Virus record (IMG/VR): IMGVR_UViG_2974506496_000001 | Location: 1 to 64,000 of that record | DNA length: 64,000 bases | Origin: a virus | Lineage: Duplodnaviria; Caudoviricetes | Direction: 5' to 3' (one strand) | Shown here: piece after piece, positions 5,419 through 62,954 of the stretch | Layout: each line of letters begins with the position of its first letter | Position numbering within the stretch: the stretch's first letter is position 1 | Made by a program: the position numbers and the translations under genes | The notes under the pieces: model-generated | Databases searched by the model: none | Told to the model about the DNA's origin: nothing | Seen by the model: the letters and a program-made list of their open reading frames with translations, nothing else

Positions 5419-5445
5419 GGAGAGCTTCGGCTCTCCTTTATGCCG
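5419..5445 (+). terminator. Hairpin-TTATGCCG element
   Basis: GGAGAGC-TTCG-GCTCTCC followed by TTTATGCCG, 9 nt after a stop codon. Confidence 0.75.
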
Positions 5446-5681
5446 GCCAGGTTTTCCACCCATCTCCTCTATCGGACAACAGATATAGATAGCGTCTGAT
5501 CAACGTCATTGATTACACCTTATTCTACGACCCCAACGTAACCTGTCGACATTCATAAGGGAATGCCACACCGTTGTTTATGCCTGTTCTTATAAAAGAA
5601 GCGACCAAGCAAAAGACCAATAATCCGCAAGCCTTCTTTAAACTAAACCTGTTCTCTTTTCTTATTAATCTGGAGTGTTGT

Positions 5682-6014
5682 ATGGATTTCTCATTTCTAC
5701 TTGATCAAAACCCGTTGAGCTATTACAAAAACGAGTTACCGGCCTTAGTCCGTGAACTTAATCGCTCGATGGAAGATGATGCCCGTGTTTCCTGTGAAGA
5801 CGCACTGAATGCGCTGGTGCATCTCTTTGCAACACCGGGCGAGCTCATCAGCCTTACTATTCAGCGCCACTGTAGCATCGCTGAGCAGAAGCTTCGCTAT
5901 ACGGCAAAGTTCATCAATGACACAGTGGCTACAGTCGAAGGACCTGAGCCAATGGATCTGCGCTATGTGCTAGGGACTGCAGTATTTAACGCCATCACCA
6001 TTCCTATCAAATAA
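5682..6014 (+). CDS. Hypothetical protein (110 aa; start moved from 5574)
   Basis: TGGAG RBS before ATG 5682. Confidence 0.6.
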   Translation: MDFSFLLDQNPLSYYKNELPALVRELNRSMEDDARVSCEDALNALVHLFATPGELISLTIQRHCSIAEQKLRYTAKFINDTVATVEGPEPMDLRYVLGTAVFNAITIPIK

Positions 6015-6016
6015 AT

Positions 6017-6056
6017 CGGCATAAGAGGAGAGGCATTTGCCTCTCCTCTGTTATGC
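6017..6056. terminator. Bidirectional hairpin-TTATGC element between convergent genes
   Basis: CGGCATAA-GAGGAGAGGC-ATTT-GCCTCTCCTC-TG-TTATGC, then an 11-T run. Confidence 0.8.
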
Positions 6057-6076
6057 TACTTCTTTTTTTTTTTGGT

Positions 6077-8932
6077 TTAGAACGTGAACTTCGGGTTTTT
6101 CGAGTCGTCGTCGTTGAAGTCGTCATCCGTCGGATCTTCAAGACTCGGATCAGCGGCATCATCATCCGGATTAGTGGTATCGTCCGGGTTCTGTGTGTCA
6201 TCCGGGTTCTGTTCATCTACCGGAGGTTCGTCACCATCGGTCGGTGGTGTCGGCATGGCAAACGGGTCAGCTTCACCCTCATCCGGTGCGGCATTCGGAT
6301 TAGCGGCAGTATCACCCAGCTGCTCATCTTCCTTCAGCTTATCGTATTTACTCTGCAGCTTCTCTTCGACTTTCTTCTTATCTTTCAGATACGTGAGAAT
6401 GCCTTCCCAGACATTTTCGTTATAGCTGATGATTTCAGAAAGCAGGGCAGCGGTAGCGTTAGTGTCTTCACCCAGATCATTCAGGATTGCGTATTGCTGC
6501 GCATTACCGGAATCATCCATCCACTTACGCATGTACATTGCCACCAGAGACTGACGCCAGGTTTCCAGATCCTCTTCAGAACCATCCAGGAACTTGCCCA
6601 CCACGGCATCTGGGAAGCGGTCATTGATGACAGCCTCGGTGTGTTCACGACGTGTCTGGTAGGCACGGGTGATCTCTTCCAGGTCGGTGGTTTCAGGTTC
6701 AGGTAGGGTGACGATGATTGAGTTAATGAAGTTGGTCAGCAAACGGGCTGCAATCGCACCTTCATCCTTAGCAACATCCGGGTTATTGGCTTTGAAGTCC
6801 TCAAACATCTTCTTGCCTTTAGCCGAAGACGGACTCCAGAGCTTCTTGTTGTTATGAATGATGTCGTACAACTCATTCATCAAGTTACCGGACTTGGCGG
6901 TCAGTTTACGCACCAGGTCAGAGGCATGACCACACACCACACGTTGTGACACGGTGATCTCTTGCGAGTACAGCGCATCGTTGTTGATGTGTTCGATGGC
7001 AAACTTAATGTCGTTCTGCGACGAGATGAGTTCAGGACGAATCCCCCACATCTGTGACAAGAACTCCATCAAGCGGTCATTCCACTCTGGATCAGGTGGA
7101 GTGATGTCACGCTTGCCGTGAGAGATATCTGCATCAATCGACGGGTAGTGATCGTTACCACTGGTCTTTACAATCACGCTGGCACTGTCAAGGATGTTAC
7201 ACACATCACGCGGGTTCTTGGCACCGATGATCGAGGAGAGACCAAGGGTGGAGTTCAAGTGCGTGGTGATCACATCTTCGATGGTGTTTTCTGGCTCTGG
7301 GTCATCCTCATCCAGCGGGATGTTCAGGGTGGTGATGTTCACCGAGTTCGCGACGTTAGCAAGCGTAGTCGCAATGATGTTGGTCATCGCCATCGACGCA
7401 TACAGACGTGAGCGGTCTAACAGAGAACGACCAATACCAAACCGGTTGTAGTCGAAAGCGAAGTAGGTCATCGCTTCTTCTGGCAGGTACAGGATACGGG
7501 TCTGCAGGTTACGGCAAGTACGGGCAAACATGATACGCATGACTTCGTTGGTTAACCCTACGGTCATGGTCTGGCCATAAGTGCCATTAGCCAGGCGCTG
7601 CACCAGATCTTTCTCCACTTCTTCGACATACTTGTTGTAGAAGGCAGACGTATCAAAGGTACATTTATTACCCGACTTCATCTCCGCAGCCATGGCAATG
7701 ATGCCTTTGGTGCTGTCGATGGCGCTGTTGGTATCCTGACGGTTCTTCATCTGATCTTGATAGAACTGATCATTCTGCGCCGTACGCACTGGGTTGCCGT
7801 GTTCATCCAACAGAACGAAGTAGCCAACGCGGTGTTTAAAGTCACCCGGGACGTGCACCGGGATCACACACTCTGAAGGCAGGTGCATCAGTAATGGCTG
7901 GCCAACGTTTTCTTTAGACAGCTCGTCGTCACGTCCAACCGTGATGTTATTGGTCGCTACGTAATCACGCTGTTTAAAGAGGTCGTTGTAGACATTGCTG
8001 TACTGCTCATCTGTTAACACCGGTGTCTGGGCAACTTTGCTGTCTTTGTCCTTACCGCCTTTTGCTTTCGCCCCACCTTTGTCTTCCAGTGCCTCCATAC
8101 CGGCACGGCGCAGACCTAACGGGATACGGTTCTTCTTCGACAGGTTGTGTCGCGCTAACGCCAGCTTAAAGCGCGGCAGACTTAACACCGCGTCGTTATC
8201 GGTGATGGTCAGCCCCAACTCATTTTTATTATCACCATTCAGATGGTGCATGGTCATAATAGGCGTTTCGCCACTCATCAACGATTCGAGTGACGCGGTC
8301 ATCAGCATATTAGAACTACCTGGGTTACCCAGATAGCCACGAGAGCGGAACTGTTGGGAGTGTGCGTCGTAGTCATCAGCAATCGCTTCCATACCAGAGC
8401 CACGGGTATAGCCGTTAATCACGTTATCCAGTGACGACTGGGAAAGCACTGCCCAGGCTGAAGAACCGGTCTTAAATAACATGTCCGGAACGATGTCAGC
8501 AAGTTTGTCAGTAATTTTATAGTTCTTTTCTATGTACTCCCGCACTGCGCTGATCAAAAGACTGTTAAGCTCTGTGTTCTTACCCTCATACGCTTCTGTG
8601 GTATAAGTCAGGGAGACCGTGCGTAAGTTACGCGGAGAGAGAATAGACGCCGTAAGGATCTTACACGCCTTTAAGGCTCCGGGTACACTTTCCATCAATT
8701 CGGTATTCGAGTCGATACTGGTACTGGTCAGTTTGGAGATGTTTTGGAGCATCCCTGCAGAAGGACCACCATCCCGGTTGGAACGTCCTGTACGTTTGGA
8801 CGTATCCCGCGGTTTGTTGTCCTTCGGAACCAGTATGTCAATGATCGCTTTTGTCGCAGGATCTTTATTGAGTAAATTCAGTTTTGGCGTAGCAGCACGG
8901 CTGTTACCTGCCAAGCGATTCGATTCGGCCAT
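6077..8932 (-). CDS. Putative portal protein (phiKZ gp129-like)
   Basis: About 950 aa; PSECVIPVHVPG..HRVGYFVLLDEHGNP motif and acidic tail; AAGGAG RBS before ATG 8932; divergent from a baseplate-like gene as recalled for phiKZ-like phages. Confidence 0.7.
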   Translation of the reverse strand: MAESNRLAGNSRAATPKLNLLNKDPATKAIIDILVPKDNKPRDTSKRTGRSNRDGGPSAGMLQNISKLTSTSIDSNTELMESVPGALKACKILTASILSPRNLRTVSLTYTTEAYEGKNTELNSLLISAVREYIEKNYKITDKLADIVPDMLFKTGSSAWAVLSQSSLDNVINGYTRGSGMEAIADDYDAHSQQFRSRGYLGNPGSSNMLMTASLESLMSGETPIMTMHHLNGDNKNELGLTITDNDAVLSLPRFKLALARHNLSKKNRIPLGLRRAGMEALEDKGGAKAKGGKDKDSKVAQTPVLTDEQYSNVYNDLFKQRDYVATNNITVGRDDELSKENVGQPLLMHLPSECVIPVHVPGDFKHRVGYFVLLDEHGNPVRTAQNDQFYQDQMKNRQDTNSAIDSTKGIIAMAAEMKSGNKCTFDTSAFYNKYVEEVEKDLVQRLANGTYGQTMTVGLTNEVMRIMFARTCRNLQTRILYLPEEAMTYFAFDYNRFGIGRSLLDRSRLYASMAMTNIIATTLANVANSVNITTLNIPLDEDDPEPENTIEDVITTHLNSTLGLSSIIGAKNPRDVCNILDSASVIVKTSGNDHYPSIDADISHGKRDITPPDPEWNDRLMEFLSQMWGIRPELISSQNDIKFAIEHINNDALYSQEITVSQRVVCGHASDLVRKLTAKSGNLMNELYDIIHNNKKLWSPSSAKGKKMFEDFKANNPDVAKDEGAIAARLLTNFINSIIVTLPEPETTDLEEITRAYQTRREHTEAVINDRFPDAVVGKFLDGSEEDLETWRQSLVAMYMRKWMDDSGNAQQYAILNDLGEDTNATAALLSEIISYNENVWEGILTYLKDKKKVEEKLQSKYDKLKEDEQLGDTAANPNAAPDEGEADPFAMPTPPTDGDEPPVDEQNPDDTQNPDDTTNPDDDAADPSLEDPTDDDFNDDDSKNPKFTF

Positions 8933-8964
8933 TTTAAAGAGGCTCCTTGCAGTGGGAGAATAGC

Positions 8965-11340: not shown

Positions 11341-11341
11341 C

Positions 11342-11373
11342 CGGCATAATGAGGGGTCGTCACTGACCCCTCA
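11342..11373 (-). terminator. Hairpin-TTATGCCG element on the minus strand
   Basis: Plus strand reads CGGCATAA-TGAGGGGTC-GTCACT-GACCCCTCA. Confidence 0.6.
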
Positions 11374-11378
11374 AAAGT

Positions 11379-11387
11379 AATCCTATG
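11379..11387 (+). promoter_or_regulatory. Candidate late promoter (AATCCTATG)
   Basis: TATG core as in phiKZ late promoters; same AATYMTATG pattern at 18198 and 39919; precedes a structural operon. Confidence 0.4.
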
Positions 11388-11419
11388 TTTACACCACCTC
11401 TACGCCTAAGGAGAACCAC

Positions 11420-12295: not shown

Positions 12296-12310
12296 CCGAG
12301 GAATCGCATT

Positions 12311-13129: not shown

Positions 13130-13149
13130 TCTGTTGAAAAGGAACAATA

Positions 13150-14025: not shown

Positions 14026-14040
14026 TGACACGGGGGTGAC

Positions 14041-14910: not shown

Positions 14911-14923
14911 CAGTGTATAAATG

Positions 14924-14949
14924 AAGGGTGGGGCTTCGGCTCTGCCCTT
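14924..14949 (+). terminator. GC-rich UUCG hairpin between structural genes and ruvC
   Basis: AAGGGTGGGGC-TTCG-GCTCTGCCCTT; no U-tract. Confidence 0.45.
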
Positions 14950-14959
14950 AGGGAGTCTT

Positions 14960-15566: not shown

Positions 15567-16076
15567 ATGACTACGCAGGCTACTGAAGAAGAGAAGGTGG
15601 AAGTGCCGGCATCGAGTCTGGTTGAACCAGTGATCGAGTCGGTACACCCGCCGGTTGTCCGGGCAATGAACTTTGCCGGGGTATTGGCTGTCCTCACCAC
15701 CTGTTTGTGTGCCATTGCTTTCTTTGCCAACATGTCAATCCATGTCTGGCGAAACGGGTCATGGCCGCCGAACGTGGGGGCGGTGATCGTGGCAGTGGTG
15801 TTGATCGGTCCTGTCTTAACCGCCTGGCAGTTCATGGGTGTGCGCAAAATCCTAACCTCATTACTTTCAAACGAGAATGGCCTGGGGTTAGGCGGAATTG
15901 CGAAAGAGGTCGTGGCACGGCGTATGGGGTTTCAATACCAGCCGACCCAGCCAATGACCAGCCAGCAGGTGCAGCAAAACTACCCGTCACATCAACCGCC
16001 GGTGGAATACCCCACGCCACCCGAGGGTTATGCACAGAACGTCCCGCCCGTACCACCCGGTGAGAATGCACGATGA
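15567..16076 (+). CDS. Two-TM membrane protein with Pro/Gln-rich tail; holin candidate
   Basis: Two hydrophobic segments; converges on the spanin genes. Confidence 0.45.
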   Translation: MTTQATEEEKVEVPASSLVEPVIESVHPPVVRAMNFAGVLAVLTTCLCAIAFFANMSIHVWRNGSWPPNVGAVIVAVVLIGPVLTAWQFMGVRKILTSLLSNENGLGLGGIAKEVVARRMGFQYQPTQPMTSQQVQQNYPSHQPPVEYPTPPEGYAQNVPPVPPGENAR

Positions 16077-16097: not shown

Positions 16098-16150
16098 CAG
16101 CATAAAGACAGAGAGCTTCCTTGCGGAGGCCCTCTGTCTTGTTTATGCCG
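16098..16150. terminator. Bidirectional hairpin-TTATGC element between convergent genes
   Basis: CAGCATAA-AGACAGAG..CTCTGTCTT-GTTTATGCCG. Confidence 0.75.
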
Positions 16151-20495: not shown

Positions 20496-20520
20496 GGGTG
20501 AGTGGGTGACCCCCTCACCC
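20496..20520 (+). terminator. Intergenic GC-rich hairpin
   Basis: GGGTGAG..CTCACCC directly after the stop codon. Confidence 0.4.
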
Positions 20521-20548
20521 ACTTCCCTATGACCCAGGAGAGGTTTCG

Positions 20549-24040: not shown

Positions 24041-24047
24041 CCAGCAC

Positions 24048-24072
24048 GGGGGAGGTGACTCCCCCTTTCTTT
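24048..24072 (+). terminator. Intrinsic terminator-like hairpin
   Basis: GGGGGAG-GTGA-CTCCCCC followed by TTTCTTT. Confidence 0.55.
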
Positions 24073-27544: not shown

Positions 27545-27595
27545 ATCGGCATAGAGGGAGAGGTGTTAGCCTCTCCCTCGTGCTTTATGCCGATT
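27544..27595. terminator. Bidirectional hairpin-TATGCCG element between convergent genes
   Basis: AATCGGCATA-GAGGGAGAGG-TGTTAG-CCTCTCCCTC-GTGCTT-TATGCCGATT. Confidence 0.8.
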
Positions 27596-28532
27596 AAACA
27601 GGACCACCAGTTTCTGAACCGCCTTTCTGTACCCCACCGTGCAGGTGACCGGTTAGTGAGATACCGGCTGCGACAACATCCGCTGGGGTGTTTAAACCAC
27701 CAGAGGTCTCAATGTGACCATTATGGTCGATGTCACCAATCATACTGATCCCACCTGGAGAGTTAATCGTGGTTTTATTAGTAATAAGCTCGAAGGATTC
27801 ATTAGCCGTGATCTTCATGGTTTTGCACAACATGGAAATCAGTTCTTGGGCAGTGAGATTGAAGTTCTCTTGCGCAATGATTTCAATGTTCTTTTTGCTC
27901 ATGGTGATCAGGCACTTGTCGGTATTGGTGATCTGCCATAACGCCTCAAGCGAGTTCAGGACCAAGTTGTTGTCCAGGTCATCCGCCAATGAGAAGATCG
28001 CTTCACCGTAATCCGCCTTGATGACATACTGGACTTGTTCGCCATTCATCTTCGAGTTGGACATCATGAAGTGTTTTTTATGAGAGGACCATTCAATGAA
28101 GTACCAGTCTCCTTCACCGATGTTCTTATCTTCAGTGGTGGCCGGCGACCCACTCAAGGCAATGATGATGGTCTCTAAACGTCGCAGGTCATCATCCAGA
28201 CCCGTTTCCGTCCAGTAGTACTTGTCCTCGTCACCAATCTGCCAGATCACGACACGTTCACCTTTGACTACATCGGGGGCGGTGACGCGGTTAGAACGGA
28301 ATGGGAACCAGATTGCTGCGATGGTGGAGTCCGTTACCACTTTGTCTTGGGTACTGTCACCCGACGAGGTCTTGCCATTATGGGTGATGACCTGTGGGTT
28401 CACTTCAGCTTCACCCGACATCATCGGTGCAGTTTCACGGGGAATAACTTGAATCTCTTTGCTGTTGGTGCTCTTGACTGCAGCCACCACACCCATAGAG
28501 TAAAATTTAAGAACCGATACGTTACTGGCCAT
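27594..28532 (-). CDS. Baseplate central spike (gpV/gp5-like)
   Basis: OB-fold-like N-terminus, beta-helix-like repeats, C-terminal GISLTGHLHGGV iron-binding HxH apex. Confidence 0.75.
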   Translation of the reverse strand: MASNVSVLKFYSMGVVAAVKSTNSKEIQVIPRETAPMMSGEAEVNPQVITHNGKTSSGDSTQDKVVTDSTIAAIWFPFRSNRVTAPDVVKGERVVIWQIGDEDKYYWTETGLDDDLRRLETIIIALSGSPATTEDKNIGEGDWYFIEWSSHKKHFMMSNSKMNGEQVQYVIKADYGEAIFSLADDLDNNLVLNSLEALWQITNTDKCLITMSKKNIEIIAQENFNLTAQELISMLCKTMKITANESFELITNKTTINSPGGISMIGDIDHNGHIETSGGLNTPADVVAAGISLTGHLHGGVQKGGSETGGPV

Positions 28533-34452: not shown

Positions 34453-35220
34453 ATGAAAACGATCAACGCGATCCTTCACACCCTCGTGCTGTTTGCACTT
34501 GTCTTCGTTGCACAATCCTCACTGGTCCACGCCTCGACATCAACTGGAAAAGCTGCCGTCCAGTTTAATCAAGCAGGGTGGGATAAATACAAATCCACAT
34601 TAACCCGAGCCTCGTTAGCATCCGGTGTACCGGTCACTGAGCTCGTGATCTTTACCTCTATTGAGTCTGACTTCGAAGCCAAGGCCCGCAACACAGCCGG
34701 GAGCAATGCAGGCGGACTGACCCAATTCATTCCAAGTACTTGGCGATCGATGGTGCGAACCCACCACAAAAAGTACGGGTTAAGTAAAAACGTGTCTCGT
34801 TTTAATGCCTATGCCAACGCGGCTATGACCGCAGAGTATATTAAGCAGAACAGGAGCCTTCTACAACAGGCACTAAAACGGGAGATCACCACTACCGATG
34901 TCTATATGGCTCACTTCCTTGGTCCGGGTACTGCAATTCAAGTCCTGAAGGCCAAAGGTAACCGCTCGATCACATCTGTTGTAAAGGCGACAAAAGGAAA
35001 TGCCCGCTTGTTTTACAACAAAGGTCGACCATTAACGGTTGCTCAGTTTAAAGCCAATATGGCCCGCAAAGTGGCTAACCACCGCCAGGTCTATAAACCC
35101 GTTGCCGTAAAGTACGCTGTACGCTACGAGGAAAACCAACGTCTCGATGCGCTTATCGCCAAAGTCAATGATAAGCCAGTACGCGTCGGGTTTAGCACCG
35201 CATACGTCAGGGAAATGTAA
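34453..35220 (+). CDS. Lytic transglycosylase/endolysin (phiKZ gp144-like catalytic domain) with N-terminal signal peptide
   Basis: IESDF catalytic Glu, GLTQFIPSTW, YMAHFLGPG; hydrophobic N-terminus ending VHA-S. Confidence 0.85.
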   Translation: MKTINAILHTLVLFALVFVAQSSLVHASTSTGKAAVQFNQAGWDKYKSTLTRASLASGVPVTELVIFTSIESDFEAKARNTAGSNAGGLTQFIPSTWRSMVRTHHKKYGLSKNVSRFNAYANAAMTAEYIKQNRSLLQQALKREITTTDVYMAHFLGPGTAIQVLKAKGNRSITSVVKATKGNARLFYNKGRPLTVAQFKANMARKVANHRQVYKPVAVKYAVRYEENQRLDALIAKVNDKPVRVGFSTAYVREM

Positions 35221-35251: not shown

Positions 35252-35283
35252 GGGAGGGGCGCAGGTCTCTCCCTTTTATGCCG
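35252..35283 (+). terminator. Hairpin-TTATGCCG element
   Basis: GGGAGGG..CTCTCCC followed by TTTTATGCCG. Confidence 0.75.
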
Positions 35284-39926: not shown

Positions 39927-40003
39927 GACTGCGGTTGCGTTCGGTGAGCTTGCCTTTGTACGGTATTGAAGTTCAGCAGTCGGGTGGCATTTGCCACCCT
40001 TCT
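39927..40003 (+). ncRNA. Candidate small structured RNA
   Basis: Starts at the G of AATTCTATG; GACTGC/GCAGTC stem stacked on TGAGCTT/AAGTTCA; ends in GGGTGGC-ATTT-GCCACCC hairpin. Confidence 0.35.
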
Positions 40004-40105: not shown

Positions 40106-40402
40106 ATGTCACTCATTTGCGTTGATCATCTTGTGGCGGCTTGCGCTACATTTGTTCTGCTGTTGGTGCTGGAGCGCATCATTCACAGAGACGAACCCGA
40201 CCACACCCTGATTGAACTGCTTCTTACCGCCTTCGGCATTTCAATCAGCATTCCCATCACTGTCGGTATGATTATGCTGACTTACGTGATTCTGTTGATC
40301 CGTAAGCAACCCAACGCCTTAACCAGGGCGAGCTATTTCCCGGTGGAGATCCTGCGTCTTATTACCCGCAATCGCTTCAGGCGAAAACCCTCTATTCTCT
40401 AA
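40106..40402 (+). CDS. Small two-TM membrane protein
   Basis: Two hydrophobic segments and a basic C-terminus. Confidence 0.6.
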   Translation: MSLICVDHLVAACATFVLLLVLERIIHRDEPDHTLIELLLTAFGISISIPITVGMIMLTYVILLIRKQPNALTRASYFPVEILRLITRNRFRRKPSIL

Positions 40403-40412: not shown

Positions 40413-40441
40413 GGGTGAGTGAAAACTCACCCTTTATGCCG
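40413..40441 (+). terminator. Hairpin-TTATGCCG element
   Basis: GGGTGAGT-GAAA-ACTCACCC followed by TTTATGCCG. Confidence 0.75.
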
Positions 40442-41677: not shown

Positions 41678-41711
41678 ACCCAATCAGTGCAGCCGCTGGT
41701 TGGGTTTTCTT
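41678..41711 (+). terminator. Intrinsic terminator-like hairpin
   Basis: ACCCAATCAGTG-CAGC-CGCTGGTTGGGT followed by TTTCTT. Confidence 0.55.
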
Positions 41712-45728: not shown

Positions 45729-46049
45729 ATGAACAAGAAAAAGCAAGTTACGATCTTTGTGGCAGGTGATGTCAATTCAGCTAAGACCACGGTCATTGCC
45801 ATTATTGAAAAGGCGCTGAAAGAAGCGGGTCTGGACACCACACTGCTTGCGCATGCAGCGGCGGATGCGGAATATTTCGTCGGTGAGAAATTAACACCAG
45901 AGCATATCTCTGCGATCAATGAGAAGGTTGAGATTTCCATTGAAGAACTCACCCGCCCAGCACCGACCAATGATGATGGCTCGCGCCCTGAGAGTTATGT
46001 GGCGATCGTACATAGCGCCGGTATTAAGATCCTTCCCCGTAACAGCTAA
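45729..46049 (+). CDS. Small protein with degenerate P-loop (GDVNSAKT)
   Basis: N-terminus similar to 36535. Confidence 0.55.
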   Translation: MNKKKQVTIFVAGDVNSAKTTVIAIIEKALKEAGLDTTLLAHAAADAEYFVGEKLTPEHISAINEKVEISIEELTRPAPTNDDGSRPESYVAIVHSAGIKILPRNS

Positions 46050-46054
46050 CTCCT

Positions 46055-46082
46055 AAGAGGACTTCGGTCCTCTTTTATGCCC
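46055..46082 (+). terminator. Hairpin-TTATGCC element
   Basis: AAGAGGAC-TTCG-GTCCTCTT followed by TTATGCCC. Confidence 0.75.
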
Positions 46083-46127: not shown

Positions 46128-47066
46128 ATGTTAGAGTTGCTGATGTTAGGACACACCACCCAAAGCGCGGGGGGTAAGCAGGAAGACATCAAGACTGACG
46201 TCTCGGGACTCATTGCAAAATATAGCAATGCAGGATCTATCAGCGCCTTAAATATCACCGTTGGCGCCAGCGCCGGACTTGCGGTATATGACAACCAATT
46301 AATCCTCATTAATCCGGGTTCGATGAGCTATTATGACATCAACACCTTTGCATTAAAGAAGAGCACAACCAACAACGTCAGTATCAGCGTTAGCTATAAT
46401 AGTGTCGCACACCAGTCAGGCAAACATTGGTGGTTTGGTCAGGATCGTGCTACCGCAGTAATTTACCATGCGGATTTAGAAACTGGGGTCATTACCAAAT
46501 ACCCTACGCCGCCGGTTAAGAAAGGTATGTTCTTTGCTTATAACGGCAGGCTCTGGTTATTAGGTGGTTGGGTAGGTACCACCAGTAATACCACGACCAT
46601 CTACAGCATCGACTACAACAATCCCGTGAGCTGGAGTAGTCAGCCTTTAAACACCCCATTACCTCGTCAGTTAGCGGGTGCATCAGCCTATTTCACCACA
46701 AATGGTTTAGTGGCGTTTGTCGGTGGCGGGGCGGTAGGTAGTTCCGGAGAGACTGATGGTACAGGTTATACCAGCGTCATGCTCTTCAATCCCGATACGT
46801 TAACCTTCACAGGCAAGACGATCTCCACACCAATGGGTGGCGGATACCACAACCCGAACTTTGTCTTCAATGATACCGCGTACCAATTTAAATACACCAA
46901 CACCGGACAGCGTTGGTCGTTAGGCGATGTCAGTCGGGAATCTAGCCTCAGTCCCGCACCGATAATTGGCGGTTACCATAACGCATTCACCATTGCAGGT
47001 CGCGTTGCTTTCTACGGGAACAGTTACTCTACCAGTCCTGTTTATCTCTACGTTTTACCAGATTAA
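46128..47066 (+). CDS. Kelch-like beta-propeller protein
   Basis: GRLWLLGGW and VAFVGGG Kelch-type GG motifs; GAGGG RBS before ATG 46128. Confidence 0.6.
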   Translation: MLELLMLGHTTQSAGGKQEDIKTDVSGLIAKYSNAGSISALNITVGASAGLAVYDNQLILINPGSMSYYDINTFALKKSTTNNVSISVSYNSVAHQSGKHWWFGQDRATAVIYHADLETGVITKYPTPPVKKGMFFAYNGRLWLLGGWVGTTSNTTTIYSIDYNNPVSWSSQPLNTPLPRQLAGASAYFTTNGLVAFVGGGAVGSSGETDGTGYTSVMLFNPDTLTFTGKTISTPMGGGYHNPNFVFNDTAYQFKYTNTGQRWSLGDVSRESSLSPAPIIGGYHNAFTIAGRVAFYGNSYSTSPVYLYVLPD

Positions 47067-47071: not shown

Positions 47072-47101
47072 GGAGAGGCGCATAGCCTCTCTCTTATGCC
47101 G
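47072..47101 (+). terminator. Hairpin-TTATGCCG element
   Basis: GGAGAGGC-GCATA-GCCTCTCT followed by CTTATGCCG. Confidence 0.75.
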
Positions 47102-49238: not shown

Positions 49239-49532
49239 ATGTCGTTCACACTGTCAAAGAAACTCGTTCCTGTTCTGCTCACCGCAAAAGACGGCCGTAA
49301 GTACGCCGTTGTTAATGGCGGTAACCGCGCCAAGCTGACCCTCGGCTTTGATGACGGGATCAGTCAGGAGGTTGCTGTGCCTTCTGAGCAGATTCCTGAA
49401 GAAGCGCGCACCAACGGCACTAAACTGTATTTCGATGCAGAAGGTGCGGTGACGGGCTGGGATGCAGCACCGGGTGGAAAGACGAAGTCAAGCACGACTG
49501 CCGGATCAATGACCATGCGTCGTCCTGGCTAA
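49239..49532 (+). CDS. Hypothetical protein
   Basis: GAGG RBS. Confidence 0.6.
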   Translation: MSFTLSKKLVPVLLTAKDGRKYAVVNGGNRAKLTLGFDDGISQEVAVPSEQIPEEARTNGTKLYFDAEGAVTGWDAAPGGKTKSSTTAGSMTMRRPG

Positions 49533-49540
49533 ACCATCAG

Positions 49541-49566
49541 GGGGAGGGAAACCTCCCCTTATGCCG
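49541..49566 (+). terminator. Hairpin-TTATGCCG element
   Basis: GGGGAGG-GAAA-CCTCCCC followed by TTATGCCG. Confidence 0.75.
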
Positions 49567-49578: not shown

Positions 49579-50109
49579 ATGAGTTTATTGATCTACACTG
49601 ACGGGTTGTTAATCGGGGATCGTCGGGGAACACGTAATGCAGAGCATGAGCGATTCATCCGTGACATGAAGAAGACCCATGTTTCGAAATGCAAGCGCTT
49701 AGCGTTAGGGGTGGTAGGGGAAGAGATTCATCCAACAGATCTGCCAAAGGTGATGACCTTCTTTATTAACTCGCTGACCGATCACTATCATCGTGAACAC
49801 GACGTGGGCTATACCCACAGCTATAGCGAAGAAGAGTCATTGGTAGCCGGTCTTGAGAATCGTCGTTTTATCCTGATGACAGCTGACCGGGCTTTTATCA
49901 TTAACTTCGGCTCTTTGACTGAGATCACTCACGAGCCCTGGTATTGCTCAGGTAACGGGATGGTGATGGCCGATGTCTTTCTGACTGCAGGGATGTCGCC
50001 AGGGAAAGTAATTGAAGCGGTGGCTAAACTTAACCTGGAAGTGGGGCATTCATTTACCCGTGTCGAACAGTCTCGCTTAAAACCCTTGATTAAGAAGGTG
50101 GAAGAATGA
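49579..50109 (+). CDS. Ntn-hydrolase/proteasome-beta (HslV-like) fold protein
   Basis: MSLLIYTDGLLIGDRR N-terminus; CSGNG..A...L.AG.S....EAV.K. Confidence 0.55.
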   Translation: MSLLIYTDGLLIGDRRGTRNAEHERFIRDMKKTHVSKCKRLALGVVGEEIHPTDLPKVMTFFINSLTDHYHREHDVGYTHSYSEEESLVAGLENRRFILMTADRAFIINFGSLTEITHEPWYCSGNGMVMADVFLTAGMSPGKVIEAVAKLNLEVGHSFTRVEQSRLKPLIKKVEE

Positions 50110-51526: not shown

Positions 51527-52290
51527 ATCTTTATCTCGTCTCTGACAGTCGTTATACCCCACCGGGTGATTTCTACAACAACTGGTTAGTCCACGCTAAT
51601 AGTCGTGACAGTGCCGCGATGTTGTGTAATTCACGTTGTCTGGTTGATACCTTTGAGATTGGTAGCCTGAACTACAACAACGGCGAACTGATCATGATGC
51701 ACAAGACCGTCCAGCACACGGATGAACCGCGTCTGAAGCAGAAGGTTGGGGATGCACTGTATTATCCTTTAACGGTATCACCTGACAGCAGTGCCTTTGA
51801 CCGTATCATTGGTGAGATCGTGAACAAAGCCGCCTCTCCGTTACCGGAAGGTGTCTCTGTCGATCGCCTTCTCATCAATGCTGACAGTCCTGAAGCGCTG
51901 TTCTTTATCTCGCGCCATGACTTTGGTGCATCACGTTGTTACTACAAGATCCCCAGTGAACTCGACAGCCAAATCTCTAAACTGCTGGACTTCAATAAAG
52001 GTGAGCGTATTCCCCGTACGTCTCACGAACCGGTTGTGCTCTCCTGGCGTAGTCGTCTCTCCCTCATGATCGCGCGTCAGCATGATGATGCGTACAACCA
52101 TGAGAAGCTGGAGATCTACCGTAAAATGGCATTTGATCTGGTAGCTACCGCTACCGTCGAGGATAGCGCCACGCCTGTTGCCCTCGACCCTGATCAACCG
52201 GACTTCAAAGTCTGGATGCCGGGAATTGATGAAGAGAAGATCCATCAAGCGCTGGATACGTTAGGTGCGCCACGTCAGTTAGGGGAATAG
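51523..52290 (+). CDS. Hypothetical protein
   Basis: 255-aa ORF with 4-bp overlap. Confidence 0.6.
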   Translation: MNLYLVSDSRYTPPGDFYNNWLVHANSRDSAAMLCNSRCLVDTFEIGSLNYNNGELIMMHKTVQHTDEPRLKQKVGDALYYPLTVSPDSSAFDRIIGEIVNKAASPLPEGVSVDRLLINADSPEALFFISRHDFGASRCYYKIPSELDSQISKLLDFNKGERIPRTSHEPVVLSWRSRLSLMIARQHDDAYNHEKLEIYRKMAFDLVATATVEDSATPVALDPDQPDFKVWMPGIDEEKIHQALDTLGAPRQLGE

Positions 52291-52339
52291 CCTATTATAT
52301 AGGTTGTAACTCAATGGGATGGTGATCTTTTATCTTCCG

Positions 52340-52425
52340 CGGGTGAGGGTTAGAACCCGGCTGTGGCCGCATAGCCAAAGTCGGTTAATCAAAGTCGACG
52401 GATTTGGATTACCCGGCGTGACTTG
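52340..52425 (+). ncRNA. Candidate four-way-junction structured RNA
   Basis: CGGGTGA/TTACCCG closing stem enclosing three hairpins, in a 190-bp gap that ends at a hairpin-TTATGCCG element. Confidence 0.4.
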
Positions 52426-52478
52426 TCATTGTTTCACTTTGTTCTACTACACAAACAGCTCAACTCTCTCATAATTCA

Positions 52479-52508
52479 AGGGGTGGGGTAACTCACCCCT
52501 TTATGCCG
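52479..52508 (+). terminator. Hairpin-TTATGCCG element
   Basis: AGGGGTGGG-GTAA-CTCACCCCT followed by TTATGCCG. Confidence 0.75.
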
Positions 52509-52523
52509 CAAGGATCTATTATC

Positions 52524-52856: not shown

Positions 52857-53052
52857 TTTGTGGTTGTACATTGCAATCTTTCTGCTCTGTTATATCTGGG
52901 CATTCTTCGGTCTTCCACCTACCGGTAATAAAAGAAAGCTTTATCTGTATCCGGGAATCGTTGCAGTAGCGTTCTGTTTAGGTGTAATGGCGATTAAGAA
53001 CTGCAGTGATTCAACCACACAATATCAACCGCTGTACAACGTGCATCAATAA
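52843..53052 (+). CDS. Small two-TM membrane protein, likely paralog of 52524
   Basis: AAGGAG RBS; W.F.G....K.K...Y pattern shared. Confidence 0.55.
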   Translation: MYMTDLWLYIAIFLLCYIWAFFGLPPTGNKRKLYLYPGIVAVAFCLGVMAIKNCSDSTTQYQPLYNVHQ

Positions 53053-53055
53053 CGG

Positions 53056-53083
53056 GAGGAGGCTTTGGCCTCCTCTTATGCCG
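53056..53083 (+). terminator. Hairpin-TTATGCCG element
   Basis: GAGGAGGC-TTTG-GCCTCCTC followed by TTATGCCG. Confidence 0.75.
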
Positions 53084-53153
53084 ACTATTCTTTTTTGGTT
53101 ATTTCCTACATCTACCCGCAAATCATTTAGCCCATTATACACTGGAGTTATTC

Positions 53154-53705: not shown

Positions 53706-53715
53706 GGAATCATAC

Positions 53716-55874: not shown

Positions 55875-55886
55875 GAAGGAAAGCAC

Positions 55887-57038: not shown

Positions 57039-57070
57039 TCCACTGGTGCGTTGAAGGGAGCACAACGGTA

Positions 57071-57436
57071 ATGAAGAGAGAGTCCAGTTACACCCTGGTC
57101 TTTGGGGAAGGTAGTACTGAAGAAGATGTCAACACCCTGCGTGAGATGGTGTCACACATGCGGGGGTTGACTGGGTTGTCGCAGCTGGGGGCGTTTGAGG
57201 TGTTCGTTACCCATTATGAATTGCAACGTAAAGACGCAGGGCTAATCACCAGTAATCTTCCGGTGAATGCACAGTCGTTGTTTGATGTCAGTGATCGACA
57301 GAACTGGCTGACACCGCTGTTCACTTCCCGGGGGTTAGTGGCGTGTGATTTGTTGTTGTTACTGAAGCAAGGCAAATGGACCGGAGAACACCTCAAGGTG
57401 ACCTTTCGGGTAAAGGGTATCAGGGCGAAAGCATAA
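57071..57436 (+). CDS. Hypothetical protein
   Basis: GGGAG RBS. Confidence 0.55.
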   Translation: MKRESSYTLVFGEGSTEEDVNTLREMVSHMRGLTGLSQLGAFEVFVTHYELQRKDAGLITSNLPVNAQSLFDVSDRQNWLTPLFTSRGLVACDLLLLLKQGKWTGEHLKVTFRVKGIRAKA

Positions 57437-57442
57437 CGCATA

Positions 57443-57470
57443 CGGAGGGGTCATTCCCTCCGCTATGCCG
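57443..57470 (+). terminator. Hairpin-TATGCCG element
   Basis: CGGAGGG-GTCATT-CCCTCCG followed by CTATGCCG. Confidence 0.7.
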
Positions 57471-57504
57471 ATTAAGTTTTTAACAAAGTTTACTGCAGAT
57501 CTTT

Positions 57505-57521
57505 TCAGACCTATATCACGT
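57505..57521 (+). promoter_or_regulatory. Candidate early promoter TCAGACCTATATCACGT
   Basis: Near-identical to 40038-40054; TATATTAC-like core. Confidence 0.6.
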
Positions 57522-57568
57522 CGGTGAATAACCTTTCACTAATTAACCAATCCGTAAGGAGTTTTATC

Positions 57569-58945: not shown

Positions 58946-58952
58946 TTCACAC

Positions 58953-58982
58953 GGGGAGGTTTCCCTCCCCCTTTTATTTTTT
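58953..58982 (+). terminator. Intrinsic terminator
   Basis: GGGGAGG-TTTC-CCTCCCC followed by CTTTTATTTTTT. Confidence 0.65.
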
Positions 58983-59008
58983 AATTAACCTACTGTGAGA
59001 ATTTAACC

Positions 59009-59710
59009 ATGAACAAAGAAACTTATACTACCTGGTACAATGGATTAAAAGAAAGATTGGCGACTGGGCACATTAATCAGGAACACTACGAGACACTTAT
59101 TGTTGACAATCTAAGTTCATTGATTACTCATTTCTTCAATAGTCGATACGACGATGGTCATATGTCTCTGGAGGAGCATTTTGCGTTAGTTAATCATTAT
59201 TTCGAACTGGTTGCTGATGCAGAAATATCAGAACGCAGTGCCATGCTCATGGTACGTTCTGTAGCTAGCAGTATTCAAAAGCTACCAGCGGCTAAAGCCT
59301 TCGCAGAGAAACATAACACTCCGGCGCCGTCAATTAAAGAAATTCTTGGTAGTCGACCTGGTTTACTGCGTAAGCATGCTGCCAGCACGACCGAGAAGAT
59401 GATAGGGTGTCCGGTGATCACCCAGGCCAACGAACCTGAGAACGAAGTAACCATTGACTTACCCTGGAAATTGGCATTGCACGTTTACAAAGGGTTCCTG
59501 GTAAAGGCGCTGATGTCAAAGCACGGATATAAATACAGTGATGCGTATAACTACATTACTGATCATCAGAACAAATACGACGAACTCTTGGCAGAAGTCC
59601 TCAACAACATTATTGCTAATGAGGAATCGCATCTGGTGTCGGTAGGTGGCGGCATCACTGCAGCGGGTACTGGTCTGGTGGTAAGCGGGATTATTAAGCC
59701 GGAGGAGTGA
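59009..59710 (+). CDS. Helical N-terminal domain fused to an RNA polymerase beta-prime fragment (switch 2 plus dock), non-catalytic
   Basis: Residues ~105-203 align by eye with beta-prime KSL..[29 protein letters not shown]; no NRxPTLH or NADFDGD. Confidence 0.65.
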   Translation: MNKETYTTWYNGLKERLATGHINQEHYETLIVDNLSSLITHFFNSRYDDGHMSLEEHFALVNHYFELVADAEISERSAMLMVRSVASSIQKLPAAKAFAEKHNTPAPSIKEILGSRPGLLRKHAASTTEKMIGCPVITQANEPENEVTIDLPWKLALHVYKGFLVKALMSKHGYKYSDAYNYITDHQNKYDELLAEVLNNIIANEESHLVSVGGGITAAGTGLVVSGIIKPEE

Positions 59711-60270
59711 TGAAAGGAGAGATAGAGACACGCTTCAGAAGACACTACGGCAACCACATTAAACGGGGTAGTGATATCGCAGTGCCTTTATACCACATTA
59801 GTCTACAGAATGACTTGGAGGGGCTATGGCGACCTAAAGCCCCTGACTCGCCATTTGATATTCCGAAGAAACCCAACATCATTACTGAAATGCCGCTCCC
59901 GCGTATCTGTGTAGCACCATCTATCGAACAGTGCTTCTGGGCAATCTATCCCAATATCTCTAAGCTCTTTGAAGAGGAAGAATACGCAGCGGTTTGTTTT
60001 GCGGTTTATCAACCGATTCTGCATGCCGGTATTGCTGTCGTGGATACCAGTACGTTAACGCAATGCCGACTAGTGCACGATGCACATATTACCGGCGAGC
60101 ATTGGTTACTTAGTGATACCACCATGTGTGTGATCGACTTTATTCAGGTTAATAACACCTCACACGGCGAGTTCGTAAAGTTCCATCCGTTTAATACCCC
60201 GGTTGGTAACGAATGGGAGCTCGCCCCTAAAAATGTTGTTTATCATTCACTTAAATTAACGGAGTTGTAA
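59710..60270 (+). CDS. Putative ADP-ribosyltransferase-fold protein
   Basis: LYHIS, PRICVAPSIEQC, VHDAHITGEHW in ART-like strand order (H, S/T region, E). Confidence 0.45.
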   Translation: MKGEIETRFRRHYGNHIKRGSDIAVPLYHISLQNDLEGLWRPKAPDSPFDIPKKPNIITEMPLPRICVAPSIEQCFWAIYPNISKLFEEEEYAAVCFAVYQPILHAGIAVVDTSTLTQCRLVHDAHITGEHWLLSDTTMCVIDFIQVNNTSHGEFVKFHPFNTPVGNEWELAPKNVVYHSLKLTEL

Positions 60271-60274
60271 ATCC

Positions 60275-60919
60275 ATGGTAACTGCTAGAAAAGCTAATAA
60301 GACCTTAGGTGAGCACGCAGTGGCTCATGAGGCAGTAACACGCTTAGGTAGCAACAAGAAAGTCAAACCAGTTAAACCGCTTTGGACACTGGAGAACATC
60401 GAGGACAATCTGGTTGGTCAAGGCATCCTTGCCTACTTGAAACGCCACACGTCGTTATCGATCCGTGATATCAACACCGCGGCTAACCGCCTGACGAAGA
60501 TTGCTGATTCAGATATAAAGGAAGGGAAAGCGCGTGATTACGTGGCACGAGTTATTGGGTACAACAATTACGACGCTCTCAACGTCACCGTTCGTGCAGC
60601 GGTACCTGTGCGCAATCATGTACAACGTCGTAAAGCAAATCAGCCGGTCACAGAGTTGTTGATAGAAGACGAAGAACTGCCGCCGGTAACACGTACTGAA
60701 ATCAACCCCTTGGTGATGTTAGCCCTACAGCGTGAGATCTCTAAACGCGGCTTTCGTCTACTGGGTAAGAACTACCGGGCTTTCGTTAACAAGGATAACC
60801 CCGAGCACACCTTTACGTTGATGCAGGCGTATAACTACCTTGCCAAACAACTGGGTTATCCGGATTATCACTCTATGCCCCGTCAATACCCAATCATTAA
60901 CTTGCGCTACGTCGATTAA
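60275..60919 (+). CDS. Protein with two copies of a small helical domain
   Basis: ARDYVARVIGYNNYDAL and AYNYLAKQLGYPDYHSM. Confidence 0.55.
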   Translation: MVTARKANKTLGEHAVAHEAVTRLGSNKKVKPVKPLWTLENIEDNLVGQGILAYLKRHTSLSIRDINTAANRLTKIADSDIKEGKARDYVARVIGYNNYDALNVTVRAAVPVRNHVQRRKANQPVTELLIEDEELPPVTRTEINPLVMLALQREISKRGFRLLGKNYRAFVNKDNPEHTFTLMQAYNYLAKQLGYPDYHSMPRQYPIINLRYVD

Positions 60920-60941
60920 CCTATTGTAAGGAATAAAGAAC

Positions 60942-61691
60942 ATGACAACGACTTTCCCGAAAGAGATGAATGCTGCTTTCCATCCTGATAACGAACAAAC
61001 CACCCAGCTGTGCAAAACGATCCAGCAGATCAGCGGGGTGGAGATCAAACGTGTACATGTGGTGATGGCGATCCACCATTACAAACAAAACGATGCGGCA
61101 CATCAGCCTGACCACATGCTGGCGGTCTTAGCAGAAGCAGCCCACATCATCCAGTCGTTTCCTGACCTGGAGAAATGGCGCACCCAGATCATGTTAGGGT
61201 GTCTGTTCCATGACACCCACTGTCACATCGATCGGGATATGCACCACCTGCTAGGCGCCGAACATGCCCAAGAGGCATTACTGGAGTATGCGTGTGGTTA
61301 TGGGATGTCACGTGCGGATGTCTACCTGATCAGTCAGGCCGTACTGGAGCATCGGGCTTCCTGGAAGTACCCGCGTATTAACCCTGTATCCAACGCTGTG
61401 GCGTCTGCAGATCGTGGCTACCCTGATCTAAAGAAATACATCCGTCGTGCTGTACAGTACCGTTACAAGCGCATGGCAGTCATCAACATGAACACCATCA
61501 TCGATGAGTCGATCGAACACATGGTAGAGAAGTTCGGTGATGGCGGTTATGCCTGGGAAAGCTACCCGACGTATGCAGCGGTGATGCACGGTGATGCGAT
61601 TCAACAAGTGAAGCAACAACTGCGCAGTAAAGAAGGAAAGGCACAGCTCAAGGAGTACGCTGAACTCCACTTTGATGAGTGGGTAGAATAA
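60942..61691 (+). CDS. HD-domain phosphohydrolase
   Basis: H...H, LFHD, HH..GA, EH, ADR motifs. Confidence 0.8.
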   Translation: MTTTFPKEMNAAFHPDNEQTTQLCKTIQQISGVEIKRVHVVMAIHHYKQNDAAHQPDHMLAVLAEAAHIIQSFPDLEKWRTQIMLGCLFHDTHCHIDRDMHHLLGAEHAQEALLEYACGYGMSRADVYLISQAVLEHRASWKYPRINPVSNAVASADRGYPDLKKYIRRAVQYRYKRMAVINMNTIIDESIEHMVEKFGDGGYAWESYPTYAAVMHGDAIQQVKQQLRSKEGKAQLKEYAELHFDEWVE

Positions 61692-61699
61692 GCTACGTG

Positions 61700-61728
61700 G
61701 CCGGAGGATTACCTCCGGCTGTTATGCC
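61700..61728 (+). terminator. Hairpin-TTATGCC element
   Basis: GCCGGAGG-ATTA-CCTCCGGC followed by TGTTATGCC. Confidence 0.7.
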
Positions 61729-61851
61729 TGTTCTTTCTTCTTTGTAATTCTCAACACATTCGGTCTTTGTTATACAAAGGCTATAATCTTTGTCCCGAGC
61801 TAAGGGTAACGTGAACAGTTATGCTGGCTTACTTTTTAAAGGTATCTTTTC

Positions 61852-62382
61852 ATGGATGGTTTATTTAATCTCTCCTCATGGCAATCGATTTTACTTGTGG
61901 TAGTTGTACTCCTGCTGTGGGCGTATTACCAACGACTTCAACACCTGCGTCGTAAGTATCATCGCCGTAATGAACGCATGATGGCGCAGAGCGTGGTCAT
62001 GACATCCCGGCTGTTACTGAGTACCTTCTCGGAGATTGTGGAACGCGCTAAAGAGGAGGACATCTACCAGCGTGATCCTAACTCCCCGATTGCGGCAGAC
62101 CGGGCCAGTGCGATGGCCTGCTCCTCCATCTTCAGTGGGTTGTATAACCTGGTTGTGGTGCCCGTCACCACCCTTGATCCGGTGTTCAACGATTTATTGA
62201 TTACCGGTACTGAGCGGGAAGATGTTGAGGAAGGGGTCTTTGTGTCGTTTTATTTGGGTGAACAGCGTAATGATGTGGTTAGGCATTTTATACCCGACCG
62301 GTCGTTACAGGCCTTTATCACCCAAACGCGTGCCTTCAGTGCTTACCTGCGACAGGCTGCGAATACAAAACCACCACAATGA
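61852..62382 (+). CDS. N-terminally membrane-anchored protein, likely paralog of 62391
   Basis: Single TM; L.IT...V......DV pattern shared. Confidence 0.6.
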   Translation: MDGLFNLSSWQSILLVVVVLLLWAYYQRLQHLRRKYHRRNERMMAQSVVMTSRLLLSTFSEIVERAKEEDIYQRDPNSPIAADRASAMACSSIFSGLYNLVVVPVTTLDPVFNDLLITGTEREDVEEGVFVSFYLGEQRNDVVRHFIPDRSLQAFITQTRAFSAYLRQAANTKPPQ

Positions 62383-62390
62383 GGTGACAC

Positions 62391-62921
62391 ATGACCAATT
62401 ATGGTTTTCTGCTGAACACAGTACTTCTGGCTTTTCTTATTTGGTTTGGTTACCGACTGCACACGTTGGTAAACAACAGCGAGAAAGCCACCCTCGCCGC
62501 TGATCATAACGCCAAGCTGCGCTTCCTGACCTATGCAGCCCGGCAGATAATGAGTGACTTGTATACGTCGCTCAATCTTCCGACGCTCACCGGGTGTGCG
62601 AAGATGTATCTACGCGATGACGGCAAGCTTGATAATATTGAAGTCATTATGCGACTCTTCATGAAAACCCATAATGAGATTATTACCAAGCTCTCCGAGG
62701 GATTGGTGTCGGATCATTTGAAGATCACCGATGTTAAAGTTACCCATGATCTGGTGACCAACGAAGTGCTCATCACACTCTTGTATCCGAATAAAGTCAC
62801 TGACATCCTGGTCTTCCATCATAACCACCTGGCGCAGGCGATCTACCAACTGGATCGATTGCAGCATCGGCTCTCAACGTTCCACAAAGCGGTGCCGAAC
62901 CGCGACCTGTACCAACTCTAA
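62391..62921 (+). CDS. N-terminally membrane-anchored protein, likely paralog of 61852
   Basis: Single TM; same length (176 aa). Confidence 0.6.
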   Translation: MTNYGFLLNTVLLAFLIWFGYRLHTLVNNSEKATLAADHNAKLRFLTYAARQIMSDLYTSLNLPTLTGCAKMYLRDDGKLDNIEVIMRLFMKTHNEIITKLSEGLVSDHLKITDVKVTHDLVTNEVLITLLYPNKVTDILVFHHNHLAQAIYQLDRLQHRLSTFHKAVPNRDLYQL

Positions 62922-62924
62922 ACC

Positions 62925-62954
62925 AAGGGAGGGCTTCGGCTCTCCCTTATGCCA
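62925..62954 (+). terminator. Hairpin-TTATGCC element
   Basis: AAGGGAGGGC-TTCG-GCTCTCCCTT followed by ATGCCA. Confidence 0.7.

Follow-up and report, generated by a model that had tools for sequence, protein, structure and literature searches.

Hairpin-tail elements at gene boundaries in the window

The DNA analysed here (IMG/VR record IMGVR_UViG_2974506496_000001, positions 1 to 64,000; this whole stretch is called the window) represents the first 64 kilobases (kb), i.e. the first quarter, of the 271,182-base pair (bp) single-contig genome of an Erwinia jumbo phage of the genus Agricanvirus. The genome has a G+C content of 50% and is 96-97% identical to those of the Erwinia amylovora jumbo phages Rebecca, Desertfox, Deimos-Minion, and MadMel, all of which belong to Agricanvirus. 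The subject of the analysis is a dispersed element, i.e. a GC-rich hairpin that is followed within 0-5 nucleotides (nt) by (T)TATGCC(G) or a one-base variant thereof. An earlier note, made from the letters of the window, had listed 15 sites with this arrangement, and both hairpin and tail were recovered at 15 of 15. Three of the sites (6017, 16098, and 27544) are two-sided, so that the window contains 18 oriented elements. The hairpin energies range from −10 to −28 kcal/mol across these elements, and the tails have T counts of 1-4 and no U-tract. Between convergent genes the two-sided module is a palindrome of the form GGCATAA-stem-loop-stem-TTATGCC, which is used by both strands.

Genes were called with a simple codon-usage caller, and the annotation of Desertfox was used as a check for the window only. 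A first alignment of all copies (MAFFT, A2) was structurally inconsistent, and a fixed-geometry seed (A3) was used instead for a covariance model (R1), which was built on ten copies. To find orthologous sites, the C-terminal end of the upstream protein served as an anchor in two phages, AH06, which also belongs to Agricanvirus, and Salmonella phage SA002 (70% protein identity). The elements of the window are given below with the E values of R1; their designation as terminators is putative.

5418-5445, plus strand: terminator element, hairpin 5418-5437, tail TTATGCCG at 5438-5445 (E=6.7e-5), 8 nt past the stop codon of a gene for 827 amino acids (aa; 2926-5409); retained in AH06 and SA002 with an altered stem
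6017-6049, minus strand: two-sided terminator, minus side, hairpin 6024-6049, tail TTATGCCG at 6017-6024 (R1 match)
6024-6058, plus strand: plus side of the same terminator, hairpin 6024-6049, tail TTATGCTA at 6051-6058 (R1 match); the whole element (6017-6058) lies between two convergent genes, a structural gene (6077-8932, minus strand) and a gene at 5574-6014 (plus strand)
11342-11373, minus strand: minus-strand element, hairpin 11350-11373, tail TTATGCCG at 11342-11349 (weak R1 match, E=0.58), located between two structural genes of the plus strand; the plus side of the hairpin has no TTATG tail
16098-16140, minus strand: two-sided terminator, minus side, hairpin 16105-16140, tail TTATGCTG at 16098-16105 (E=0.0087 for the site)
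16105-16150, plus strand: plus side of the same terminator, hairpin 16105-16140, tail TTATGCCG at 16143-16150 (E=0.0087 for the site); the hairpin is long and imperfect (about −24 kcal/mol), and the convergent genes end at 16076 (plus strand) and 16158 (minus strand)
27547-27579, minus strand: two-sided terminator, minus side, hairpin 27554-27579, tail CTATGCCG at 27547-27554 (R1 match)
27554-27592, plus strand: plus side of the same terminator, hairpin 27554-27579, tail TTATGCCG at 27585-27592 (R1 match); the whole element (27547-27592) is flanked by the end of a gene for 1151 aa (27544, plus strand) and a baseplate gene (27594-28532, minus strand) and is kept in AH06 and SA002
35252-35283, plus strand: terminator element, hairpin 35252-35273, tail TTATGCCG at 35276-35283 (E=0.0017), 31 nt past a transglycosylase gene (34453-35220), with 39 nt from TATG to the next gene start; at the orthologous site in SA002 the stem differs and the tail is identical
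40413-40441, plus strand: terminator element, hairpin 40413-40432, tail TTATGCCG at 40434-40441 (E=1.6e-7), about 10 nt past a small gene (40106-40402)
46055-46082, plus strand: terminator element with a variant tail, hairpin 46055-46074, tail TTATGCCC at 46075-46082 (E=0.017), 5 nt past a gene ending at 46049 that is itself downstream of an RtcB-like ligase gene
47073-47101, plus strand: terminator element, hairpin 47073-47091, tail TTATGCCG at 47094-47101 (E=6.1e-5), 6 nt past a gene end at 47066, with 24 nt from TATG to the next start codon; at the orthologous site in AH06 the stem differs and the tail is identical
49538-49566, plus strand: terminator element, hairpin 49538-49559, tail TTATGCCG at 49559-49566 (E=7.8e-5), 6 nt past a gene end at 49532, with 19 nt from TATG to the next start codon
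52478-52508, plus strand: terminator element, hairpin 52478-52501, tail TTATGCCG at 52501-52508 (E=4.4e-7), which closes a 187-nt non-coding stretch after a gene ending at 52290
53056-53083, plus strand: terminator element, hairpin 53056-53075, tail TTATGCCG at 53076-53083 (E=5.3e-5), 3 nt past a stop at 53052; a T-run and GGTTA lie downstream
57443-57470, plus strand: terminator element, hairpin 57443-57462, tail CTATGCCG at 57463-57470 (assigned by hairpin, tail, and AH06 orthologue), 6 nt past a gene end at 57436; at the orthologous site in AH06 the stem is entirely different and the tail identical
61700-61729, plus strand: terminator element with a variant tail, hairpin 61700-61719, tail TTATGCCT at 61722-61729 (assigned by hairpin and tail), 8 nt past a phosphohydrolase-like gene (60942-61691)
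62924-62954, plus strand: terminator element with a variant tail, hairpin 62924-62947, tail TTATGCCA at 62947-62954 (E=5.3e-6), 3 nt past a gene end at 62921; a T-run and GGTTA lie downstream

According to the gene calls and the Desertfox annotation, 13 of the 15 sites lie just after a stop codon, in agreement with the description of nearly all of them in the earlier note. The two true exceptions in the window are the minus-strand element at 11342, which is antisense between plus-strand genes, and the element at 52478, which is 187 nt away from the previous stop. The comparison with Rfam gave no family match within the window.

Some observations concern these two exceptions. The tail of the element at 11342 adjoins the stop codon of the gene upstream, which is on the opposite strand, and the element may be a block on antisense transcription or a decayed two-sided terminator. 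The region 52291-52510 has a predicted fold of −72.5 kcal/mol (z=−3.28; 1 of 200 shuffles was equally good), and Desertfox contains about 540 additional unannotated bases at this position. The stretch may represent a small RNA or a structured leader.

Enrichment, placement, and stem drift across the genome

The heptamer TATGCCG is present 21 times in the window, compared to 6.95 ± 2.7 times in shuffled sequences, and none of 100 shuffles reached 21. The entire excess is made up of the 13 copies behind a hairpin, while the remaining eight are intragenic, lack a strong hairpin, and are at chance level. Genome-wide, a perfect GC hairpin precedes 90 of the 1375 copies of TATG, compared to 1.2% of random positions, and CCG follows in 40 of these 90 versus about 2% of the rest. 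The enrichment of TATGCCG past hairpins, which the earlier note had proposed as a check, was thus observed. For a test in which no motif was assumed, the next 13 nt past each of 187 strong hairpins were counted. TATGC was the most enriched 5-mer (50 observed, 1.21 expected), and TTATG was next (52 observed, 1.31 expected).

A total of 61 copies of TATG are hairpin-associated; the three bases that follow are mainly C (in 50 copies), C (in 47), and G (in 44), and the preceding base is a T in 50 copies. The fraction of intergenic copies is high (57 of 61), and these 57 elements represent 49 loci genome-wide. At least 46 of the 57 begin no more than 40 nt past a co-oriented stop codon, and two of the 11 apparent exceptions are accounted for by small genes that were missed by the gene caller and are annotated in Desertfox. 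Twenty-four of the 57 elements (42%) are directed at the 3′ end of a convergent gene; the sequence TATGCYG is present in 21 of them. The distance from the last G/C-paired stem base to the G of TATG is 5-7 nt in 44 of the 57 elements. The covariance model yielded 41 matches in the genome with E≤0.01.

The placement also bears on translation. In Desertfox, gp50, gp56, and gp61 are annotated from the tail ATG, as expected if the purine-rich 5′ arm of the hairpin (GGAGAGG) were a hidden ribosome-binding site and the tail provided the start codon. However, the purine arm precedes the ATG by about 20 nt and is tied up in a stable stem, and most tails have no open frame after them. The 24 elements mentioned above face convergent genes, and a short distance downstream there are better starts that have ribosome-binding sites of their own, e.g. 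at 49579 after GGAGGGG. A translation signal is therefore regarded as extremely improbable. The Desertfox starts of the three genes correspond to the ATGs at 46077, 49561, and 52503 of the window, which have no ribosome-binding site and are inside the terminator; these starts are probably mis-called.

The earlier note had considered the T-run too short for a canonical bacterial terminator. A scan for canonical terminators (at least five T in eight positions) picked none of the eight elements within 40-60 kb, consistent with that view. The number of canonical T-rich terminators in this region, 17 versus 16 expected, reveals no enrichment, and the hairpin-tail elements are the main class of strong hairpins there. 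Strong intergenic hairpins without a TTATGCC tail were also found, i.e. at 20501-20523, 24046-24067, 39982-39999, 41678-41705, and 58951-58972. Some of these are followed by T-rich sequence (e.g. TTTTATTTTTT after 58951-58972), and they form a second, more canonical-looking class of putative terminators. In addition, a run of 5-11 T followed by (G)GTTA is present about 10-20 nt past several terminators, in the window at 6062-6080, 53088-53105, and 62960-62978, and elsewhere in the genome at 75.9, 81.3, 105.4, 178.1, and 207.9 kb. Seven of the 15 genome-wide matches to this arrangement lie upstream of genes, at a distance of 14-79 nt from a start codon, and it may be an AT-rich early-promoter-like signal directly after the terminator.

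The contrast between variable stems and a conserved tail, another statement of the earlier note, was quantified in two ways. In an alignment of 81 copies fitted to the model, 96.9% of the cells pair, compared to 66.6% in shuffles, double changes number 175 versus 44, and seven of the seven modelled pairs have changed on both sides. The orthologous sites offer a view that does not depend on this alignment. At such sites (e.g. 5439, 35277, 47095, 57464, 81924, 105886, 143246, and 180316), the stems are rewritten yet still paired, and the tail TTATGCCG is unchanged. The identity of the hairpin region is 75% in AH06 and 37% in SA002, compared to 97% and 96%, respectively, for the 8-nt tail; for the next 10 nt it is 62% and 40%. 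TATGC was required in both partners, leaving three free tail positions, and these are still about 90% identical. The comparisons indicate that selection acts on the structure of the hairpin, not on the sequence of the stem.

The same data allow an evaluation of an element at the DNA level, i.e. a palindromic repeat that is mobile, a site of recombination, or a cassette boundary. Near-identical modules of 37-45 nt at unlinked loci (e.g. at 119.2, 154.4, and 251.8 kb) and the location of the elements at gene boundaries would fit such an origin. In contrast, the similarity ends at the module edges, the flanks are unrelated, target duplications are lacking, and the orientation of the elements follows the upstream gene. 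Moreover, the stems covary for pairing while their sequence drifts, which points to selection on an RNA structure rather than on a DNA site. A DNA-level element is thus very improbable. The mobile-repeat variant was rejected because the similarity stops at the module edges, and the cassette boundary suggested in the earlier note is not supported by the copies, which share only the module of about 40 nt within unrelated flanks. The three two-sided terminators at 119161-119187, 154371-154397, and 251763-251789 have an identical 37-nt core (GCATAAGGAGAGGGCAAACGCCCTCTCCTCTATG) and unrelated flanks. A second set with shared stems (AGAGGAGGAGC) is located at 95.9, 171.1, and 270.3 kb. The shared cores could reflect convergence on an optimum or short-patch copying.

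Relationship to the terminators of phiKZ-like phages

One gene of the window links the phage to phiKZ:

1001-2689, plus strand: gene for the beta-like subunit of a non-virion RNA polymerase, homologous to phiKZ GP123 (PHIKZ123)

This open reading frame (ORF) has 26% identity to PHIKZ123 with 94% of the query covered (tblastn), and the phage is therefore phiKZ-like with its own multisubunit polymerases, a classification that is also in line with its identity to other Agricanvirus genomes. The non-virion polymerase to which the ORF contributes a subunit is among the enzymes that must read the hairpin-tail signals.

For phiKZ, a terminator motif that consists of a hairpin and TTATKYYGT has been defined from 61 RNA 3′ ends mapped by ONT-cappable-seq (Putzeys et al. 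2024, PMC10914365), with the full consensus BCCYCCCCHWWDGGGRRGGBYTTATKYYGT. In the same study, most copies were classed as intrinsic terminators by ARNold, and bidirectional terminators were reported between convergent genes (PMC10914365). The motif recurs as “motif A” in 59 terminators of phage 201phi2-1, and reporter assays in uninfected cells of Pseudomonas chlororaphis demonstrated termination by eight terminators of that phage, from single and combined motif classes (PMC11512511). The proposal of the earlier note that the elements are a transcript-end signal is supported by the homology to this motif, whereas a phage-specific factor, which it proposed as the reader, may not be required, given the activity of the 201phi2-1 terminators in uninfected cells.

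A direct check of the phiKZ DNA revealed hairpins that are followed by TTATGTTGT, TTATGTCGT, or TTATGCTGT, and TTATG is the top 5-mer past strong hairpins (61 observed, 3.2 expected). The corresponding values for TTATG past strong hairpins in the other phages sampled are:

AH06: 49 observed, 1.5 expected
SA002: 32 observed, 1.4 expected
Klebsiella phage Eowyn: 29 observed, 1.6 expected
Ralstonia phage RSF1: 15 observed, 0.7 expected
Erwinia phage Joad: 8 observed, 0.4 expected

TTATG or TATGC is the top 5-mer in the phage analysed here and in AH06, SA002, Eowyn, phiKZ, RSF1, and Joad, whose G+C contents range from 37 to 52%. The model trained on this phage had 34 matches in 140 kb of Eowyn, despite a polymerase subunit identity of 31%. 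Serratia phage PCH45 has the tail variant TT(G/A)TGCTGT, and hairpins of SPN3US and of the Vibrio phage VP4B carry T-rich tails (TTATTTT, TTTTT). The conserved tail is thus not universal among phiKZ-like phages. From these variants it follows that the tail is tuned by lineage, with T-T-N-T-G-Y-Y-G as the widest common form.

The elements share with the terminators of phiKZ and 201phi2-1 the GC-rich hairpin with TTAT-G-Y-Y-G(T) directly after it, the intergenic position past stop codons in the orientation of the upstream gene, the two-sided form between convergent genes, and the presence of dozens of copies per genome in a chimallivirus with two multisubunit RNA polymerases. Two differences to phiKZ are evident. 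The Y-Y of the tail is nearly always C-C in this phage (TTATGCCG, 50% G+C), whereas it is mainly T-T, T-C, or C-T in phiKZ (37% G+C), and the 5′ arm is purine-rich here (GGAGAGG) and mainly pyrimidine-rich in phiKZ. The terminators of phiKZ and 201phi2-1 have mapped 3′ ends or were reporter-tested, whereas those of Agricanvirus are known here from sequence alone. A literature search for TTATGCCG retrieved nothing beyond a primer sequence. The element has already been published for the relatives, and the Agricanvirus sites are very probably a further example of it.

The comparison with canonical intrinsic (Rho-independent) terminators gave a mixed result. Common features are a stable GC hairpin directly past the gene, a weak A/U-rich stretch after the stem, and the activity of related copies (201phi2-1) in uninfected bacteria. 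In contrast, the elements have a conserved 8-mer with a G+C-rich distal half instead of a U-tract, and they are missed by the canonical scan.

Probable termination, possible processing, and the role of TATG

Taken together, the elements are highly likely to be transcription terminators, i.e. RNA 3′-end signals that correspond, in Agricanvirus, to the terminator with a conserved sequence known from phiKZ-like jumbo phages. The signal would act at the level of transcription, because its orientation follows the genes, selection appears to act on RNA pairing, and 3′ ends have been mapped in relatives. The RNA 3′ ends at the motif were mapped in those relatives only and would, by analogy, lie at the same place in this phage. 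The conservation of the tail at elements that face convergent genes, where only stopping makes sense, also supports termination.

RNA release by multisubunit polymerases occurs 7-9 nt beyond the stem of a hairpin terminator. In the proposed mechanism, a polymerase that leaves the gene would transcribe the GC-rich hairpin of 6-14 bp, followed by UUAUGCCG. This tail begins with the A/U-rich UUAU, which would give a weak RNA-DNA hybrid directly behind the hairpin. Since the G of TATG is typically 5-7 nt past the stem, G-C-C-G would span roughly positions +5 to +10 beyond the last G/C pair and thus fall into the zone of RNA release. We infer that the tail could be a short sequence-defined substitute for a U-tract, which slows or destabilises the polymerase during hairpin formation, and that the conserved G-Y-Y-G would have this effect at the release point. 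Between convergent genes, a single palindromic module would serve both strands.

Several points weigh against this interpretation. The 3′ ends are deduced from relatives with a polymerase subunit that is only about 26% identical, and ends obtained by ONT-cappable-seq cannot separate termination from processing and trimming back to the hairpin. The conservation of G-Y-Y-G has no explanation from tests, its role in pausing or release being our own suggestion. The covariation in the 81 copies favours a structure, but the alignment was fitted to the model, so that it is supportive and not independent. Downstream genes start just 19-25 nt past the tail at 47095, 49560, and 52502, which would imply partial termination or restart, a point that a simple terminator model does not settle. 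Lastly, the minus-strand element at 11342 follows no gene on its own strand.

An alternative is an element for RNA processing or stability, at which transcription would continue past the site, a nuclease would cleave within the single-stranded UUAUGCCG, and the new 3′ end would be shielded by the hairpin. A conserved single-stranded sequence beside a stable hairpin is the expected appearance of a cleavage site with a protective cap, the published 3′-end maps do not distinguish the two processes, and the tight downstream spacing would fit polycistronic transcripts that are cut afterwards. However, the 201phi2-1 terminators reduce the expression of downstream reporters in uninfected cells, ARNold regards most phiKZ copies as intrinsic terminators, and the fixed distance of 5-7 nt from stem to G matches the release geometry. 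In addition, we know of no nuclease with specificity for UUAUGCCG, and the analysis identified none. Processing is thus considered quite improbable as the function of the elements.

A second function could be added to termination, i.e. the TATG of the tail could be a late-promoter core at which transcription restarts with the G. Such a coupled terminator and promoter would be compatible with termination and would not replace it. The late promoter of phiKZ is TATG with the G at +1; all four bases are required in vitro, and nothing is conserved downstream of TATG (PMC4666361). GP123 binds the non-template TATG in a pocket that is lined by F151, H185, H331, Y399, Y406, and others (PMC12809450). 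The tails of this phage contain the same tetranucleotide, and the window encodes a GP123 homologue with the key stacking residues. An alignment of 10 homologues including this ORF shows no variation at F151, H331, and Q466 and almost none at K158 and S334, and an aromatic residue is retained at positions 185 and 406, whereas other pocket positions differ even between phiKZ and this phage. The short distance of 19-25 nt between the tail and several downstream genes, furthermore, leaves no room for another promoter.

The arguments against a promoter function as the cause of tail conservation are stronger. A late promoter would lie upstream of an expressed gene and point into it, whereas 24 of the 57 elements are directed at convergent genes, where initiation would generate only antisense RNA, and have an equally conserved tail. 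The conservation continues into C-C-G, and these bases have no counterpart in phiKZ late promoters. An upstream hairpin is also a difference, and the model late promoter P119L lacks one. Tails of PCH45 often read TTGTGCTGT, in which GCTGT is retained and TATG is lost. Upstream regions of genes contain no excess of hairpin-less TATG (85 observed versus about 83 expected). The pocket residues do not track the tail type, being invariant also in SPN3US and VP4B with their T-rich tails, although this comparison carries little information. As the convergent-facing elements keep the tail, the late-promoter function of TATG is not needed, and the re-initiation site that the earlier note had envisaged is unlikely.

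A connection between starting and stopping can nevertheless be imagined, in which the phage polymerases may read the same four bases for both. The GP123 pocket, which in phiKZ lies under the beta-lobe and whose stacking residues are retained in the homologue of this phage, could grip the TATG of the tail during elongation and thereby cause a sequence-specific pause 5-7 nt past the hairpin, in place of a U-tract, and a restart at the G would be possible at co-directional sites. We regard this scenario as distinctly doubtful. As another candidate reader of the tail, ChmC, the RNA-binding protein of the phage nucleus, was considered and rejected; the published eCLIP data gave no motif and showed binding near start codons.

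As putative terminators, the elements provide a ready map of the ends of transcription units for Agricanvirus phages, and they flag start codons that are probably mis-called at the tail ATG. They also represent compact terminators of about 40 nt, some of them two-sided, for Enterobacterales. The 8-nt tail is nearly unchanged across phages with polymerase subunits that are about 25-30% identical and G+C contents of 37-52%. This constancy, in spite of the divergence of polymerases and base composition, suggests that termination in these phages is sequence-dependent and would not be brought about by the hairpin alone.

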